Shown here: positions 1-30,250 of the stretch, in pieces | How positions within the stretch are numbered: position 1 is the stretch's first letter | Layout: each line of letters opens with the position of its first letter | Source of the DNA: a virus | Taxonomy: Duplodnaviria; Heunggongvirae; Uroviricota; Caudoviricetes | IMG/VR virus record: IMGVR_UViG_2609459863_000015 | DNA: 30,250 nucleotides | Strand: one strand, 5' to 3' | The notes under the pieces: model-generated | Database searches by the model: none | What the model was told of the DNA's origin: nothing | The model's input: only the letters and a program-made list of their open reading frames with translations | Program-made: the position numbers and the translations under genes

Positions 1-99
1 GTAATACGTTGACGGGGCAATATGCAGTTCGCTGCATAGCGGTCCGACCCCGTACTGCTCACGCAGCTTATCCAGCAGTGGCATCATTTTTTCCAGAGG
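1..99 (-). CDS. IS3-family transposase OrfB, N-terminal fragment (window-truncated), in the -1 frame overlapping the orfA stop
   Basis: Minus-strand translation of 1..99 gives [33 protein letters not shown], the typical N-terminus of an IS3-family OrfB. An A-rich run (GGAAAAAATGATG) at the orfA/orfB overlap is consistent with the programmed -1 frameshift window of this family. Confidence 0.6.
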
Positions 100-410
100 C
101 GGTCGAACTCCGCCTTCGCAAAATAAGCGGAAGCCTGGCGAAGGATATCGTTACTGCGGCGCAGTTCACGATTTTCACGTTCCAGCTCTTTCAGACGCTG
201 ACGTTCAGCGGTGGTGAGCCCGCCATCACCGCCTCCGGTATCCCGCTCATGCTGGCGTACCCAGACACGCAGAGTCTCCGGTGTACAGCCAATCTTTGGA
301 GCAATGGAACAAATTGCCGCCCACTGTGAGTCATATTCGCCCTGACTTTCCAGAACCATACGAATCGCCCTCTGACGGACTTCGGGGGAAAAACGAGTAT
401 TTTTAGTCAT
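84..410 (-). CDS. IS3-family transposase OrfA (helix-turn-helix plus leucine-zipper protein)
   Basis: 108 aa [64 protein letters not shown]...[26 protein letters not shown] matches IS629/IS1203 OrfA from memory. Confidence 0.85.
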
Positions 411-1407: not shown

Positions 1408-1492
1408 AGTCAGAGATAACAATCAACTAATACTGTTTCGTTGATTTTTGCTTGTAATTGGCGTTCTGGTCTGATTTTTGTGGAGTAAGTTG

Positions 1493-1876
1493 ATGCGTGA
1501 TATTCAGATGGTTCTTGAGCGTTGGGGAGCGTGGGCGGCTAATAATCATGAAGATGTGACCTGGTCGTCCATTGCCGCCGGTTTTAAGGGATTAATTACT
1601 TCAAAAGTAAAATCTCGCCCGCAATGTTGTGACGATGACGCGATGATCATTTGCGGGTGCATGGCCCGTCTGAAAAAGAACAACAGCGATTTGCACGATT
1701 TATTAGTAGATTATTATGTAGTCGGTATGACATTCATGTCACTGGCAGGTAAGCATTGCTGCTCTGATGGTTATATCGGGAAAAGGTTACAGAAGGCTGA
1801 GGGCATAATTGAAGGGATGTTAATGGCATTAGATATCCGGTTAGAGATGGATATCGTTGTTAATAACTCTAATTAA
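1493..1876 (+). CDS. Q: Late-gene antiterminator Q (DLP12 QuuD-like)
   Basis: ORF 1478..1876; the likely start is the ATG at 1493 ([22 protein letters not shown]...), with GGAG 6 nt upstream. Cys-rich putative zinc-binding segment [16 protein letters not shown]. Sits in the canonical Q position after rusA/ylcG. Confidence 0.8.
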
Positions 1877-2064: not shown

Positions 2065-3147
2065 TTAGAACTGGTAAACCATACCTACAGCAACGATATC
2101 ATCGGTAGCAACGCCAGATGCTTTCGTGAAATCGCTCTTATCAATCAGGTTGATTTTGTAGTCAACAAAAGTGGACATATTTTTGTTGAAGTAATAGGTT
2201 GCACCTACATCAACATATTCAACCAGGTCCTGATCACCCCAAACACCCAAGTCTTTTCCTTTAGAATGCAGGTAAGCAACGGATGGACGCAGGCCGAAGT
2301 CGAACTGATATTGTGCAACAGCTTCGAAGTTTTGTGCTTTGTTGGCAATATGGTTATTACCAAAAACAGTCATGTTCTGGGTTTCAGAATAGGTGGTGGC
2401 CAGATAGATGTTGTTCGCATCATATTTCAGACCAGCTGCCCATACTTCAGCATTTTGACCAGAAGCATTCAGACCGTTGTTACCGTAGATAACCTGATTA
2501 TTAGTGCGATCAGATTTAGCATAGGTTGCACCCACGCCGAATCCTTCATACTCATAAGTAGTTGAGAAACCGAAACCATCGCCATTAGCTTCAGTTACTT
2601 CATTTCGGTCATTTTTGCCCTGATACTGAGCTGCAAAGTTCAGGCCATCAACCAGACCAAAGAAGTCGTTGTTACGATAAGTTGCAACACCTGTGGTGCG
2701 ACCAGTCATGAATACATCTGTTTGGGTCCAGGTATCGCCACCGAATTCTGGCAGAACGTCAGTCCACGCACCGATGTCGTATGCTACACCGTAGTTACGG
2801 CCGTAATCGATTGAGCCGTAGTCACCGAATTTCAGGCCTGCAAATGCAAGACGGGTTTTGTCTTTGGAGGAACCTTGAGATTCAGCGCGGTTGCCTTTGA
2901 ATTCATATTCCCACTGACCGAAACCAGTCAGTTGATCGTTGATTTGGGTTTCACCTTTGAAGCCAAGACGGGCATAAGTAGTATCACCATCATCTGCATC
3001 ATTAGAGGAGAAGTAGTGCTTAGCATTAACTTTCCCGTACAGATCCAGCTTGTTACTGTCTTTATTATAAATTTCAGCTGCCTGAGCAGACATCGCCATC
3101 AGTACTGATGCAGCTACAGCAGAAATTGCCACTGTTAATTTTTTCAT
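2065..3147 (-). CDS. nmpC: Outer-membrane porin, NmpC/Lc (OmpC family), phage-borne moron, apparently intact
   Basis: 360 aa with signal peptide [40 protein letters not shown]... and C-terminal ...VAVGMVYQF (terminal Phe typical of OMPs). Matches NmpC from memory. Opposite strand to the flanking Q and lysis genes. Confidence 0.88.
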
Positions 3148-3951: not shown

Positions 3952-4448
3952 TGCCTCCATCATTACGAAAAGCCGTTGCTGCTGCTATTGGTGGCGGAGC
4001 AATTGCTACAGCATCAGTGTTAATCACTGGCCCAAGTGGTAACGATGGTCTGGAAGGTGTCAGCTACATACCATACAAAGATATTGTTGGTGTATGGACT
4101 GTATGTCACGGGCATACAGGAAAAGACATCATGCTCGGTAAAACGTATACCGAAGCAGAGTGCAAAGCCCTCCTGAATAAAGACCTTGCCACTGTCGCCA
4201 GGCAAATTAACCCGTATATCGAAGTCGATATACCGGAAACAACGCGCGGCGCTCTTTACTCATTCGTTTACAACGTGGGTGCTGGCAATTTCAGAACATC
4301 GACGCTTCTTCGCAAAATAAACCAGGGCGATATCAAAGGCGCATGTGATCAGCTACGTCGCTGGACATATGCTGGCGGTAAGCAATGGAAAGGGCTGATG
4401 ACTCGCCGTGAGATTGAGCGTGAAGTCTGTTTGTGGGGGCAGCAATGA
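3951..4448 (+). CDS. R: SAR (signal-anchor-release) endolysin, lysozyme family
   Basis: 165 aa. N-terminal Gly/Ala-rich weakly hydrophobic segment [20 protein letters not shown] followed by a lysozyme-like domain. Start overlaps the holin stop (TAATG). Confidence 0.85.
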
Positions 4449-4882
4449 GCAGAGTAACTGCGATTATCTTCGCTCTGGTTATCTGCATCATCGTCTGCCT
4501 GTCATGGGCTGTTAATCATTACCGTGATAACGCCATGACCTACAAAGAACAGCGCGACAAAGCCACATCCATCATCGCTGACATGCAGAAGCGTCAACGT
4601 GACGTAGCAGAACTCGATGCCAGATATACAAAGGAACTTGCTGATGCTAACGCGACTATCGAAAGTCTCCGTGATGATGTTTCTGCTGGGCGTAAGCGGC
4701 TGCAAGTCGCCGCCTCCTGTGCAAAGTCAAAGACCGGAGCCAGCAGCATGGGCGATGGAGAAAGCCCAAGACTTACAGCAGATGCTGAACTCAATTATTA
4801 CCGTCTCCGAAGTGGAATCGACAGGATAACCGCGCAGGTTAACTACCTGCAGGAGTACATCAGGACGCAATGTCTGAAATAA
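4445..4882 (+). CDS. Rz: Rz i-spanin (inner-membrane spanin subunit)
   Basis: Start ATG at 4445 overlaps the endolysin stop (ATGA). N-terminal TM segment [16 protein letters not shown] followed by a coiled-coil-like, charged periplasmic domain. The track ORF starts at a GTG at 4433. Confidence 0.8.
4644..4829 (+). CDS. Rz1: Rz1 o-spanin (outer-membrane lipoprotein), embedded in the +1 frame of Rz
   Basis: [36 protein letters not shown]...: signal peptide with lipobox VSGC followed by a Pro-rich mature part, entirely inside Rz. Start chosen at the ATG at 4644 for a proper n-region; AAGGAA lies upstream. Confidence 0.7.
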
Positions 4883-4913
4883 TTTTTTTGCAAATCACAA
4901 AGTCCATTTAATG

Positions 4914-4972
4914 AGCCTCGCGATGCGGGGCTTTTTTGCAATAAATGCGTACCGCAACGCATGTTTTTTTTT
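4914..4972 (+). terminator. Tandem Rho-independent terminators downstream of the lysis cassette
   Basis: Imperfect hairpin GCCTCGCG-ATG-CGGGGC followed by TTTTTT (4914..4937), then ATGCGT-ACCGCA-ACGCAT followed by G plus nine T (4945..4972). Confidence 0.55.
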
Positions 4973-5087
4973 ACACCGAACCTGCCCCTTTGGAATGGGC
5001 CTTTGAGGATACCAGTTAGTGCTGGCGAGCCTCGGTGGGCTGGTTTCCTGTGCGGCAAAGGTTCATTTCAAATGGTAGGTAAACGTT

Positions 5088-5609
5088 ATGAATATCGTGC
5101 CACTTAATTACAAAGGTGAAATTGTCAGTTTCAACACTGATGGTTGGATCAACGTCACAGGTGTTGCTGAGAGATTTGGGAAACGCATTGATAACTGGAT
5201 GCGTTTGGCAGAAACGCTTGAATACGTTCGTGCTTTAGACGAAGCGTTGACCGGGAAAGAATCTCAAATTTTACATCCCTCACAATCGAGGTATGTAAAA
5301 ACCAGCAAGGCACGAAAGGACAGGGGTGGTGGTACGTGGCTACATCCAAAACTTTCAGTTGCATTTGCCCGTTGGTGTGATGCTCGTTTTGCTGTGTGGT
5401 GCGACCTGCACATTGATAGTCTGCTTCGCGGTGAACTGACTGAGCAGCAGAAATATGAGCAAGCATGTCGCATTCGCGATGACCGGAAATCAAAAGCCAG
5501 CAATGGGGCAAGAGAGATGGCTCGCTGGCGATGGGATAAGCCGGTTATTGAAGCAAATGTTGAGTACTGGCGCGAGCAACTGCAGTTGACTCTCGATATC
5601 GCGTGCTGA
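5088..5609 (+). CDS. KilA-N domain-like protein (putative DNA-binding, phage-associated); family assignment tentative
   Basis: 173 aa. N-terminal segment ...FNTDGWINVTGVAERFGKRIDNWMRLAETLEYVRAL... resembles the KilA-N / APSES-like fold; basic C-terminal half. Occupies the position that bor holds in lambda. Confidence 0.5.
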   Translation: MNIVPLNYKGEIVSFNTDGWINVTGVAERFGKRIDNWMRLAETLEYVRALDEALTGKESQILHPSQSRYVKTSKARKDRGGGTWLHPKLSVAFARWCDARFAVWCDLHIDSLLRGELTEQQKYEQACRIRDDRKSKASNGAREMARWRWDKPVIEANVEYWREQLQLTLDIAC

Positions 5610-5748
5610 TGGCAAACGCAAAACTGCGTTATCGAAAAAATCAAAGCATTACTAGAACTGAGCAACGGCTATCCATTACAAAGCCCATCTACGGGTGGGC
5701 TTGATAATGGCTTATACCCTGCACGGGATAACTTAACTGATATCCCTT

Positions 5749-5913
5749 TTAACGGATAAAGGCATTCAAGCCTGACACATCATGCGCTGTATCGTCGCCG
5801 TATTCCCGTATTAACAGAGACCGTAGCCCGACGGGGAACTCCTTCTGCGCGAGTGTGCGGGAATAATCAAAAACGATGCACACCGGGGTTACCGGGTACA
5901 CATATTTCATCAT
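5749..5913 (-). CDS. Hypothetical small protein (54 aa), possible third gene of the minus-strand cassette
   Basis: Not in the ORF track. Minus-strand ATGATG at 5913/5910, translation MMKYVYPVTPVCIVFDYSRTLAQKEFPVGLRSLLIREYGDDTAHDVSGLNAFIR*. Starts 45 nt after the DUF1398 stop. Weak RBS, no homology recalled. Confidence 0.2.
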   Translation of the reverse strand: MMKYVYPVTPVCIVFDYSRTLAQKEFPVGLRSLLIREYGDDTAHDVSGLNAFIR

Positions 5914-6425: not shown

Positions 6426-6659
6426 TCAATCTGGTCTGATCTGTTTTCTGAGCAATTCAGTAATGTCACTCTTTTCTTTGTTTGCTTCAGGAGAAACTCT
6501 TTTTTCTGAGCACAGTCTCCGGCGGCAGGCTTCAATGACCCAGGCTGAGAAATTCCCGGACCCTTTTTGATCAAGAGCGATGTTAATTTGTTCAATCATT
6601 TGGTTAGGAAAGCGGATGTTGCGGATTGTTGTTCTGCGGGTTCTGTTCTTCGTTGACAT
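6426..6659 (-). CDS. ylcI: Ribbon-helix-helix (Arc/MetJ-like) small DNA-binding protein, YlcI/DUF3950-like
   Basis: 77 aa MSTKNRTRRTTIRNIRFPNQMIEQINIALDQKGSGNFSAWVIEACRRRL...: basic N-terminal beta-strand followed by two helices, as in RHH repressors. First gene of a minus-strand cassette with the DUF1398 gene 56 bp downstream. Confidence 0.6.
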   Translation of the reverse strand: MSTKNRTRRTTIRNIRFPNQMIEQINIALDQKGSGNFSAWVIEACRRRLCSEKRVSPEANKEKSDITELLRKQIRPD

Positions 6660-6829
6660 GAGGTTGTCCCGTATTTAGTGTCGCTGATTTGTATTGTCTG
6701 AAGTTGTTTTTACGTTAAGTTGATGCAGATCAATTAATATGATACCTGCGTCATAATTGATTATTTGACGTGGTTTGATGGCGTAGATGCACGTTGTGAC
6801 ATGCAGATGATAATTATTATCATTTTGCG

Positions 6830-7047
6830 GGTCCTTTCCGGCGATCCGACAGGTTACGGGGCGGCGACCTCGCGGGTTTTCGCTATTTATGAAAATTTTC
6901 CGGTTTAAGGCGTTTCCGTTCTTCTTCGTCATAACTTAATGTTTTTATTTAAAATACCCTCTGAAAAGAAAGGAAGCGACAGGTGCTGAAAGCGAGCTTT
7001 TTGGCCTCTGTCGTTTCCTTTCTCTGTTTTTGTCCGTGGAATGAACA
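6830..7047. other. cos: cos site: cosQ, cosN (12-nt cohesive-end sequence GGGCGGCGACCT at 6859..6870) and cosB with Nu1-binding R elements
   Basis: Sequence ...CGACAGGTTACG|GGGCGGCGACCT|CGCGGGTTTTCGCTATTTATG... matches the joined lambda right and left ends from memory. R-like elements: CGTTTCC at 6911..6917, GGAAGCG (inverted, variant) at 6972..6978, TCGTTTCC at 7011..7018. Confidence 0.85.
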
Positions 7048-29666: not shown

Positions 29667-30250
29667 TGGCATTCAGAATGAGTGAACAACCACGGACCAT
29701 AAAAATTTATAATCTGCTGGCCGGAACTAATGAATTTATTGGTGAAGGTGATGCATATATTCCGTCTCATACAGGTCTGCCAGCAAACAGTACCGATATT
29801 GCACCGCCGGATATTCCGGCAGGCTTCGTGGCTGTTTTCAACAGTGATGAGGCATCGTGGCATCTCGTTGAAGACCATCGGGGTAAAACGGTTTATGACG
29901 TGGCTTCCGGCGACGCGTTATTTATTTCTGAACTCGGTCCGTTACCGGAAAATGTTACCTGGTTGTCGCCGGGAGGGGAATATCAGAAGTGGAACGGCAC
30001 AGCCTGGGTGAAAGATGCAGAAGCAGAAAAACTGTTCCGGATCCGGGAGGCGGAAGAAACAAAAAACAGCCTGATGCAGGTAGCCAGTGAGCATATTGCG
30101 CCGCTTCAGGATGCTGCAGATCTGGAAATTGCAACGGAGGAAGAAACCTCGTTGCTGGAAGCCTGGAAGAAGTATCGGGTGTTGCTGAACCGTGTTAATA
30201 CAACAACTGCACCGGATATTGAATGGCCAACAGTACCCATTATCGAATAG
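29666..30250 (+). CDS. tfa: Tail fibre assembly protein Tfa
   Basis: 194 aa [79 protein letters not shown]...; lambda Tfa-like. Start overlaps the stf stop (TAATG). Stop codon is at the very end of the window. Confidence 0.88.

Follow-up and report, generated by a model that had tools for sequence, protein, structure and literature searches.

What is the gene that a lambda-like prophage carries directly behind its lysis genes, in the place where lambda has bor, and how would it be expressed? The locus lies in a 30,250-nucleotide stretch of viral DNA (IMG/VR record IMGVR_UViG_2609459863_000015), which is called the window below. The original prediction, made from the letters alone, was of a stand-alone gene for a KilA-N-like protein with a basic C-terminal half, placed behind tandem terminators and perhaps transcribed from a promoter of its own. 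The KilA-N gene adds nothing new. The interest of the locus is the RNA upstream of it, which is uncurated in Rfam and has just surfaced as an uncharacterised small RNA (sRNA) of phage P22.

The slot behind the lysis genes

The window is a DLP12/lambda-like prophage. Its gene order begins with YbcO, RusA, the Q antiterminator and an intact OmpD/NmpC-type porin (minus strand), followed by a P21-type holin, an endolysin and Rz/Rz1, with the end of Rz at 4882, and then the KilA-N gene. [quoted passage not shown]

1478..1876, + strand: Q antiterminator gene (Pfam Phage_antitermQ, E 4e-53)
4705..5782, no strand: mosaic segment replacing the 3' half of Rz, bor and flank of lambda/DLP12 (blastn breakpoints)
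5088..5609, + strand: KilA-N-ORF11CD3 gene, 173 aa, with ATG at 5088 and TGA at 5607-5609

Homology to lambda and DLP12 ends at 4704, in the middle of Rz, and restarts at 5783 (blastn). The piece that is replaced carries bor in lambda and borD in DLP12, both on the opposite strand, which bears out the prediction that the gene occupies the bor slot. All three genes lie between Rz and the DUF1398 gene (lambdap78/ybcV). The product of lambda bor, read from the opposite strand, is an outer-membrane lipoprotein said to confer serum resistance on the host, whereas the window gene is a co-oriented late gene with an unrelated product.

The same block is found in other phages. Phage ev099 has the same gene arrangement as the window at 99.6% identity, and HK544 carries the block of Rz, terminators and KilA-N gene (4445-5709) at 97.5% identity, linked to HK97-type genes. 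PhiR49_1, on which a literature search found no paper, and Stx2 phages are identical to the window up to 5092, essentially the start codon. Past that point they carry a different KilA-N-ORF11CD3 allele, whose product is 28% identical to the window protein. The window contains a single exact match to the IHF consensus, at 5639-5651 just past the gene; one match is the chance expectation, so it was set aside.

The gene and its product

An in-frame TAG lies four codons 5' of the ATG at 5088, so the start is unambiguous and an N-terminal extension is ruled out. The 173-aa protein has about 700 homologues, from Enterobacteriaceae to Pseudomonas, with a common two-domain layout of about 170 aa, and dN/dS for the ORF is 0.03-0.13 against relatives with 84-92% amino-acid identity. 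The ORF is therefore real and under purifying selection, more than a chance reading frame. Exact (100%) copies of its DNA occur in 126 complete E. coli genomes, O104:H4 strains among them, where the ORF is annotated by domain only as a "KilA-N domain-containing protein". It is also present in phages ev099, HK544 and Emek, and PHROGs assigns the protein to phrog_129, "transcriptional regulator". The gene itself is thus already known: annotated, ordinary and in a known accessory-gene hot-spot.

Members of the family occupy several different late-operon slots. Distant members lie among tail genes or, in P. aeruginosa, adjoin an S24 repressor, and those in Pseudomonas tail operons are preceded by terminators of their own and by another leader. 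Given these other contexts, the S24 neighbour included, the family is not tied to late expression.

5106..5429, + strand: KilA-N (APSES-like) DNA-binding domain, residues 7-114
5433..5594, + strand: ORF11CD3-type C-terminal domain, residues 116-169, two long antiparallel helices

Pfam KilA-N (PF04383) matches residues 7-114 with E 8.2e-22, at 77.5 bits against a gathering cutoff of 23.8. AlphaFold was used to model the protein from 38 homologues, with a mean pLDDT of 87.7, and the model has an APSES-like fold in this part. The best Foldseek matches in the PDB were the PCG2-DNA complex, Mbp1 and Bqt4, with weak E-values, and the best viral structure matches were KilA-N proteins from phages, poxviruses and giant viruses. 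The model thus supports a KilA-N/APSES fold for the N-terminal domain. The predicted KilA-N-like segment is confirmed, and with these domain and fold matches "poorly characterised DNA-binding protein" remains an apt description. A sequence search of PDB chains gave no meaningful match to the protein, and an NCBIfam search gave nothing relevant.

In a direct Pfam scan the C-terminal domain matched ORF11CD3 (PF10549) over residues 122-169 at 16.2 bits, below the cutoff of 25. PF10549 is precomputed for nearly all homologues of the protein. The window C-terminus aligns with that of the Stx2/PhiR49_1 allele, which passes PF10549 at 2.4e-13, and hhalign of the C-terminus against P22 Rha gave E 2.5e-4. 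As modelled, this part consists of antiparallel helices 116-137 and 141-168, and it matches generic helical hairpins only. The hairpin most likely mediates dimerisation or the binding of a partner.

Contrary to the prediction, the C-terminal half is not basic: residues 116-173 are neutral (pI 6.5, 11 K+R versus 11 D+E), and residues 87-173 have a net charge of +1. The basic patch is in the KilA-N domain, where the run KTSKARKDR (residues 70-78) makes up the predicted beta-hairpin "wing". The wing and the motif GGTWLHP, an instance of the invariant GGTWxHP, fall within residues 70-87 (nucleotides 5295-5348). The modelled fold suggests DNA binding, as do the conserved residues 70-85 of the basic wing and the GGTWxHP motif; wing and motif should contact the DNA.

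Terminators and the probable route of transcription

4913..4937, + strand: T1, rho-independent terminator, GAGCCUCGC-GAU-GCGGGGCUU followed by U6, with a 9-bp GC stem (RNA fold)
4945..4972, + strand: H2, GC hairpin AUGCGU-ACCGCA-ACGCAU with a 6-bp stem (4945-4962) followed by U9 (terminator scan and fold)

Both elements are GC-rich stem-loops followed by a U-run and are predicted intrinsic terminators, so the tandem terminators were rightly called. T1, a strong one, already carries a terminator annotation in HK544 and phi80. H2 scores as a second terminator because of the U9 that follows it in the window variant; other variants keep the hairpin, with compensatory changes in the stem, and do not have the U-run. 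T1 occurs alone, without the leader described below, in HK022, HK446 and others, and one copy of the leader lies just downstream of pR' without T1. T1 may therefore belong to the lysis cassette or the slot rather than to the gene module.

A promoter scan found no sigma-70-like promoter in 4883-5087. In some variants a -10-like TATAAT/TATTAA was seen by eye after H2 and considered as an internal promoter; it has no consistent -35, is absent from the window variant, and was rejected. The 4975..5087 spacer, where the original prediction suggested looking for a promoter, does not resemble one and is a conserved structured RNA leader. The gene is "stand-alone" in a qualified sense, being co-oriented with the late operon and having no promoter-like site in 4883-5087. 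A terminator scan found no + strand terminator-like site between 5609 and 5958. The locus does not have the layout of a moron unit, with its own sigma-70 promoter and a downstream terminator: no promoter was found, and the terminators are upstream instead.

Since Nu1 and A follow on the same strand, in the window as in ev099, polymerase modified by Q must read through both terminators. With two terminators upstream and no promoter detected, terminator-resistant late transcription by Q-modified polymerase would be the sole route to the KilA-N gene, judging from the anatomy of the locus and lambda biology. By the same biology, ordinary transcription in a lysogen would stop at the terminators and leave the gene silent.

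A conserved leader hairpin in front of the gene

4980..5080, + strand: leader hairpin of about 100 nt made of stacked helices (MFE -49.2 kcal/mol, z -3.5)
5074..5080, + strand: Shine-Dalgarno region GGUAGGU (AGG 8 nt upstream of the ATG), occluded by pairing in the leader's basal helix (fold)

The spacer between H2 and the gene is predicted to fold into one long hairpin. In its basal helix 4980-4986 is paired with 5074-5080, and on its 3' side there is a conserved asymmetric internal loop, CUGUGCGG, at about 5048-5055. The fold is strand-specific: there are nine G.U pairs on the + strand, and the reverse complement reaches only -34.4.

The leaders of relatives were taken from IMG/VR and public assemblies. 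Divergent variants, each folded singly, give the same architecture despite widely differing sequences. MAFFT with RNAalifold, aligning by sequence, misaligned the divergent leaders and recovered hardly any consensus structure; single-sequence folds and covariance-model alignment took its place. A covariance model was built from one leader variant, and its 28 hits were aligned (alignment A6). In A6 89.8% of cells are paired, versus 39-51% when partners are slid by 1-3 columns, and 27 of the 34 pairs have changes on both sides. The covariation score is 0.544 versus at most 0.115, and none of 500 shuffles reached the observed values, in an alignment that is fitted to the structure of the covariance model and so favours that structure. 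The agreement of the independent single-sequence folds argues that the covariation is not an artefact of alignment. Altogether the comparisons show a conserved leader structure predicted to pair with the Shine-Dalgarno region, and the hairpin appears to gate translation of the KilA-N gene through this pairing.

Covariance model R1 matches the window leader at 37.2 bits (E 1.6e-7), and there is a single copy in the window. By sequence, the window leader belongs to a rha-type, P22F-like leader RNA, a class defined in this analysis. No Rfam 15 family overlaps 4975-5087, even at E<=10, and a scan of the window at gathering thresholds gave only ALIL and IS009, both elsewhere.

A second pairing and a possible switch

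4974..4979, + strand: PK5, CACCGA, adjoining the basal stem on its 5' side and complementary to 5032-5037
5032..5037, + strand: PK3, UCGGUG, apical loop (3' side), complementary to PK5

A segment of 6-8 nt just 5' of the basal helix pairs with the apical loop. At least six contiguous Watson-Crick pairs are kept in 40 of 44 distinct leaders, with at least 15 sequence variants of the helix, among them CCCGAG/CUCGGG, CACAGAG/CUCUGUG, GCAUAGAG/CUCUAUGC and CUCAGAA/UUCUGAG. Controls with displaced, reversed or shuffled flanks gave means of 3.7-4.0 pairs. They replaced a cross-pairing control, which was uninformative because the variants have an AGAG/CUCU core in common. These comparisons show a covarying PK5/PK3 pairing, predicted as an alternative to the basal structure or as a pseudoknot.

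If the 34-bp hairpin is straight, its apex is out of reach of the 5' tail; hence the RNA bends at the asymmetric internal loop, or else the two pairings exclude each other. Unpairing the basal helix takes 6.6-11 kcal/mol, and the PK duplex is worth -7.8 to -12.7. The similar energies suggest a switch with an ON and an OFF state, and from the topology and these rough energies a two-state translational switch is plausible.

Upstream hairpins of this kind have precedents. The T4 intron and free-standing endonuclease ORFs have hairpins that sequester their ribosome-binding sites, and IS10 uses fold-back inhibition. The logic is the same, in that an upstream hairpin occludes the ribosome-binding site of an inserted accessory or mobile gene and read-through transcripts are poorly translated. 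The window leader differs in that no internal late promoter was found, and in that it is much longer, is conserved and has a covarying second pairing.

The leader in front of other genes

A pattern scan of IMG/VR for one leader variant found 120 loci. The gene after the leader is most often Rha, and the others are KilA-N variants, KilA-N+P63C, ANT/KilAC, T5orf172/MUG113 and HNH_3(+AP2). When the proteins encoded after the leader were clustered by single linkage, separate families were joined by way of C-terminal domains that they have in common; the clustering was therefore redone with coverage limits. T1 and H2 lie just upstream in 116 of 118 leader copies. The leader comes directly after the spanin genes in 92 of 123 copies, and after Q in four.

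One reading of these data, to which we would give not quite even chances, is that H2, the covarying 5' segment and the leader of about 100 nt, usually behind T1, make up an undescribed class of cis-regulatory RNA that gates interchangeable late-operon genes. The RNA may act as a translational switch or as a processing signal, its hosts may be enterobacterial lambdoid and P22-like phages, and the genes it gates may include Rha, KilA-N, ANT, T5orf172 and HNH. The P22F "sRNA" may then be the excised core of the leader, and the long-unexplained control of rha may run through the leader RNA.

One leader supported by covariation appears to control many unrelated genes of the "Bro-network" and homing-endonuclease types in lambdoid phages. 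If true, this would explain how potentially toxic accessory genes are silenced in lysogens and dosed late in infection, why the start codons of P22 and phi80 rha are annotated inside the leader, and what the P22F RNA is. The leader is also a defined, mutable element, basal helix versus pseudoknot, for studying how rha-type genes are regulated and what they do.

Comparison with Rha and P22F

A better comparator than bor is rha of P22 and phi80, which in both phages directly follows Rz/Rz1 and a terminator. Rha of P22 (orf201) and phi80 has the same post-spanin slot ahead of the packaging genes, is of the same size class at about 175 aa, and ends in an ORF11CD3 domain, which the C-terminus of the window protein resembles. 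The T1-H2-leader module upstream is shared as well, and the leader of P22 rha is nearly identical to that of the window. The leader covariance model matches P22 (35.9 bits) and phi80 (82.6 bits) immediately before ATGs that lie downstream of the annotated rha starts; the annotated starts seem to be within the leader. Translated from what is probably its true start, P22 Rha consists of Phage_pRha and ORF11CD3 (E 8.8e-28).

The two proteins differ in the N-terminal DNA-binding domain, which is KilA-N in the window protein and Phage_pRha in Rha. Phage_pRha (PF09669) has no match in the window protein at E<=10, BLASTP of the window protein against P22 Rha was not significant, and the N-terminal halves have no detectable similarity. 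The functional analogy therefore rests on the slot, the leader and the C-terminal module, and the window protein is a head-swapped analogue of Rha by slot and regulation, not a member of the Rha family. [quoted passage not shown] This harm in IHF- hosts is known for phi80 and P22 rha only, and the window protein is likened to them by analogy.

P22F is an 89-nt small RNA of P22 that ends 6 nt before the rha start codon, according to its 2026 report (PMC13397905). The same report states that it was detected in P22 infection and validated by RT-PCR, and lists it with "no known function" (PMC13397905). Window positions 4994-5081 are identical to P22F at 84 of 89 positions, including the first 79 nt, and P22F occupies the same place as the core of the window leader, ending just before the start codon. 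The accessible part of the report contains no analysis of structure, covariation or distribution (PMC13397905), whereas here the window counterpart of P22F forms the core of a leader hairpin that covaries and precedes a KilA-N gene. Since the P22F sequence is that of the leader hairpin, P22 at least accumulates the hairpin as a separate RNA, consistent with the leader being processed. As an alternative to the switch, RNA processing may release the ribosome-binding site, and P22F resembles an excised hairpin.

Function of the KilA-N protein

Taken as a whole, we lean towards the view that the gene is the KilA-N allele of an exchangeable post-spanin gene, expressed late, gated by the leader and encoding a Rha-like DNA-binding factor. 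In this slot P22 and phi80 carry rha, and lambda and DLP12 carry bor. The analogies behind the proposed function are Rha, BstA and P1 KilA. By analogy the protein would be made late and at a low level, and it is probably a dispensable, Rha-like factor that disturbs how the host or competing elements replicate their DNA or express their genes. It would probably also become harmful when over-produced.

It is unlikely that the protein is instead an antirepressor, inactivating a repressor of its own phage, other prophages or satellites as the Ant/Bro-type proteins of P22 and Gifsy do. The gene does belong to the domain-swapping "Bro network" with ANT, AntA and Rha (PMC10111431). ANT (KilAC) genes also follow this leader, in P. 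aeruginosa an S24 repressor gene has a homologue as its first divergent neighbour, and RefSeq labels P22 rha "anti-repressor". That label, however, is annotation and not a tested activity, and a Pfam scan found neither an ANT/KilAC (PF03374) nor a P22_AR domain in the 173-aa protein. Expression from behind the lysis genes and two terminators would also come too late for the phage's own induction.

Also improbable is that the gene is a selfish cassette, which persists by moving between phages at the conserved leader and flanks and contributes little. Mobility fits several observations: an identical leader precedes HNH_3(+AP2) and T5orf172/MUG113 genes, allele swaps break exactly at the start codon, as where PhiR49_1 diverges at 5092, and the family is spread over more than one late-operon slot. 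Strong purifying selection over the whole protein argues against a gene that contributes little, as does a two-domain architecture conserved in about 700 homologues from enterics to Pseudomonas, and the Pfam scan detected no nuclease domain in the protein.

The Rha-like reading has to be weighed, too, against a BstA-like prophage defence, in which the protein would be expressed in the lysogen and abort infection by other phages. BstA of prophage BTP1 is likewise prophage-encoded, has a KilA-N-like N-terminal domain and acts at phage DNA replication sites (PMC8585504), a theme it shares with the proposed function here. PADLOC gave the window protein a weak match to candidate PDC-S22 (E 1.2e-5) and reported no other system, with no BstA model matching at E<=1. 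BstA is also larger (307 aa versus 173 aa) and has a different C-terminal domain. Encoded by the resident prophage, BstA defends the lysogen, and its homologues, which are prophage-associated, protect the lysogen too (PMC8585504), whereas the window gene looks late-only, being in the late operon behind two terminators, with its Shine-Dalgarno sequestered and no promoter detected. We consider a role of this kind very unlikely.

Least credible is a lysogenic-conversion moron that replaces bor and is expressed from the prophage for the benefit of the host: the gene does sit at the bor/borD position, but it is on the strand opposite to bor, and its product, which has neither a signal peptide nor a lipobox, is predicted from its fold to be a cytoplasmic DNA-binding protein. 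The promoter scan was negative besides, and the terminators precede the gene rather than follow it.

The C-terminal domain sets the protein apart from other KilA-N/APSES proteins. In P1 KilA, poxvirus N1R/p28, fungal Mbp1, PCG2 and Bqt4 the C-terminal partner is KilA-C, RING or ankyrin, whereas in the window protein it is of the ORF11CD3 type.

Reading frames that overlap the leader

The leader covariance model was used to locate the conserved leader hairpin in front of the rha genes of two reference phages, P22 (L221) and phi80 (L222):

L221 1038-1147, leader in P22
L222 1370-1478, leader in phi80

In both phages the annotated rha start lies within this hairpin: P22 rha ('orf201') is annotated from a GTG at L221:1076, and phi80 rha from L222:1440. 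The model instead ends the leader at ATGs at L221:1145 and L222:1476, each of which is preceded by a Shine-Dalgarno sequence. Both Rha annotations therefore probably extend too far at the N-terminus. Many P22-like records have the leader entered as 'Rha protein' coding sequence.

In the window, two mechanically called ORFs overlap the terminators and the leader:

4843-5058 (-), 71 aa
4961-5107 (+), 48 aa

The minus-strand ORF recurs at 56-62 aa in P22 and in the related locus L033, which have the leader sequence in common. Both ORFs are most likely not genes.

The leader and the KilA-N gene in other genomes

Extra copies of the same leader were found at other places in related phages, at five loci:

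L033 1400-1504
L057 1286-1390
L080 5113-5223
L222 2964-3055 (phi80)
L102 8535-8625

These copies precede HNH-AP2 endonuclease genes, either between Q/pR' and holin or 3' of the KilA-N gene, or, in phi80, an N15 gp59-like ORF. The L080 copy is without the 5' segment complementary to the apical loop of the leader.

Homologues of the protein itself occupy other genomic positions. In P. aeruginosa prophages (L014-L017, 5001-5522), a KilA-N-ORF11CD3 homologue which is 54% identical is the first gene in an operon that runs divergently from the gene for a Peptidase_S24 (CI/LexA-like) repressor. This position is cro-like or antirepressor-like, whereas the enteric phages carry the gene in the late operon. 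In Pseudomonas and marine Pseudomonadales phages (L010 and L018), homologues are inserted between tail genes; upstream of them too, at ~4780-5000, there are one or two strong terminators and then 'GUGCCCGC'. The leader in these phages is conserved and includes a CUCCGCCU segment able to pair with the AGGCGGAAGGAG Shine-Dalgarno region, so that its logic is like that of the window's leader, but the RNA differs from the enteric one.

The 3' flank and remaining features of the window

The IHF consensus WATCAANNNNTTR has one exact match in the entire 30-kb window, at 5639-5651, 30 nt past the KilA-N stop codon. Its location is suggestive because Rha has been linked to IHF, but its number is at chance level, since one exact match is expected in 30 kb. 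About 75 nt 3' of the stop, a hairpin (5683-5705, AAGCCCA-N8-UGGGCUU) without a U-run lies near the end of similarity to phage HK544 (5709) and the restart of similarity to PhiR49_1 (5670). It may be the 3' edge of an exchangeable segment, or a terminator for minus-strand genes.

Elsewhere the window contains:

13-129 (-), Rfam ALIL pseudoknot (IS3-family frameshift element), 120 bits
84-410 (-), HTH_Tnp_1 transposase ORF
2065-3147 (-), intact OmpD/NmpC-type porin gene, 360 aa, between Q and holin
30009-30207 (+), Rfam IS009, full-length match, 227 bits, at the window's right end, either within or beyond the tail-fibre region

Taken together, the pseudoknot and transposase ORF indicate that an IS3-family element, or a fragment of one, occupies the left end of the window, 5' of ybcO/rusA in the nin region. 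The porin gene runs opposite to late transcription and is intact, whereas the homologous nmpC of K-12 DLP12 is split by IS5. The stretch at 6497-6858 is 94% identical to the final 362 bp of lambda, which places the predicted cos at ~6858/6859, 190 bp 5' of Nu1.
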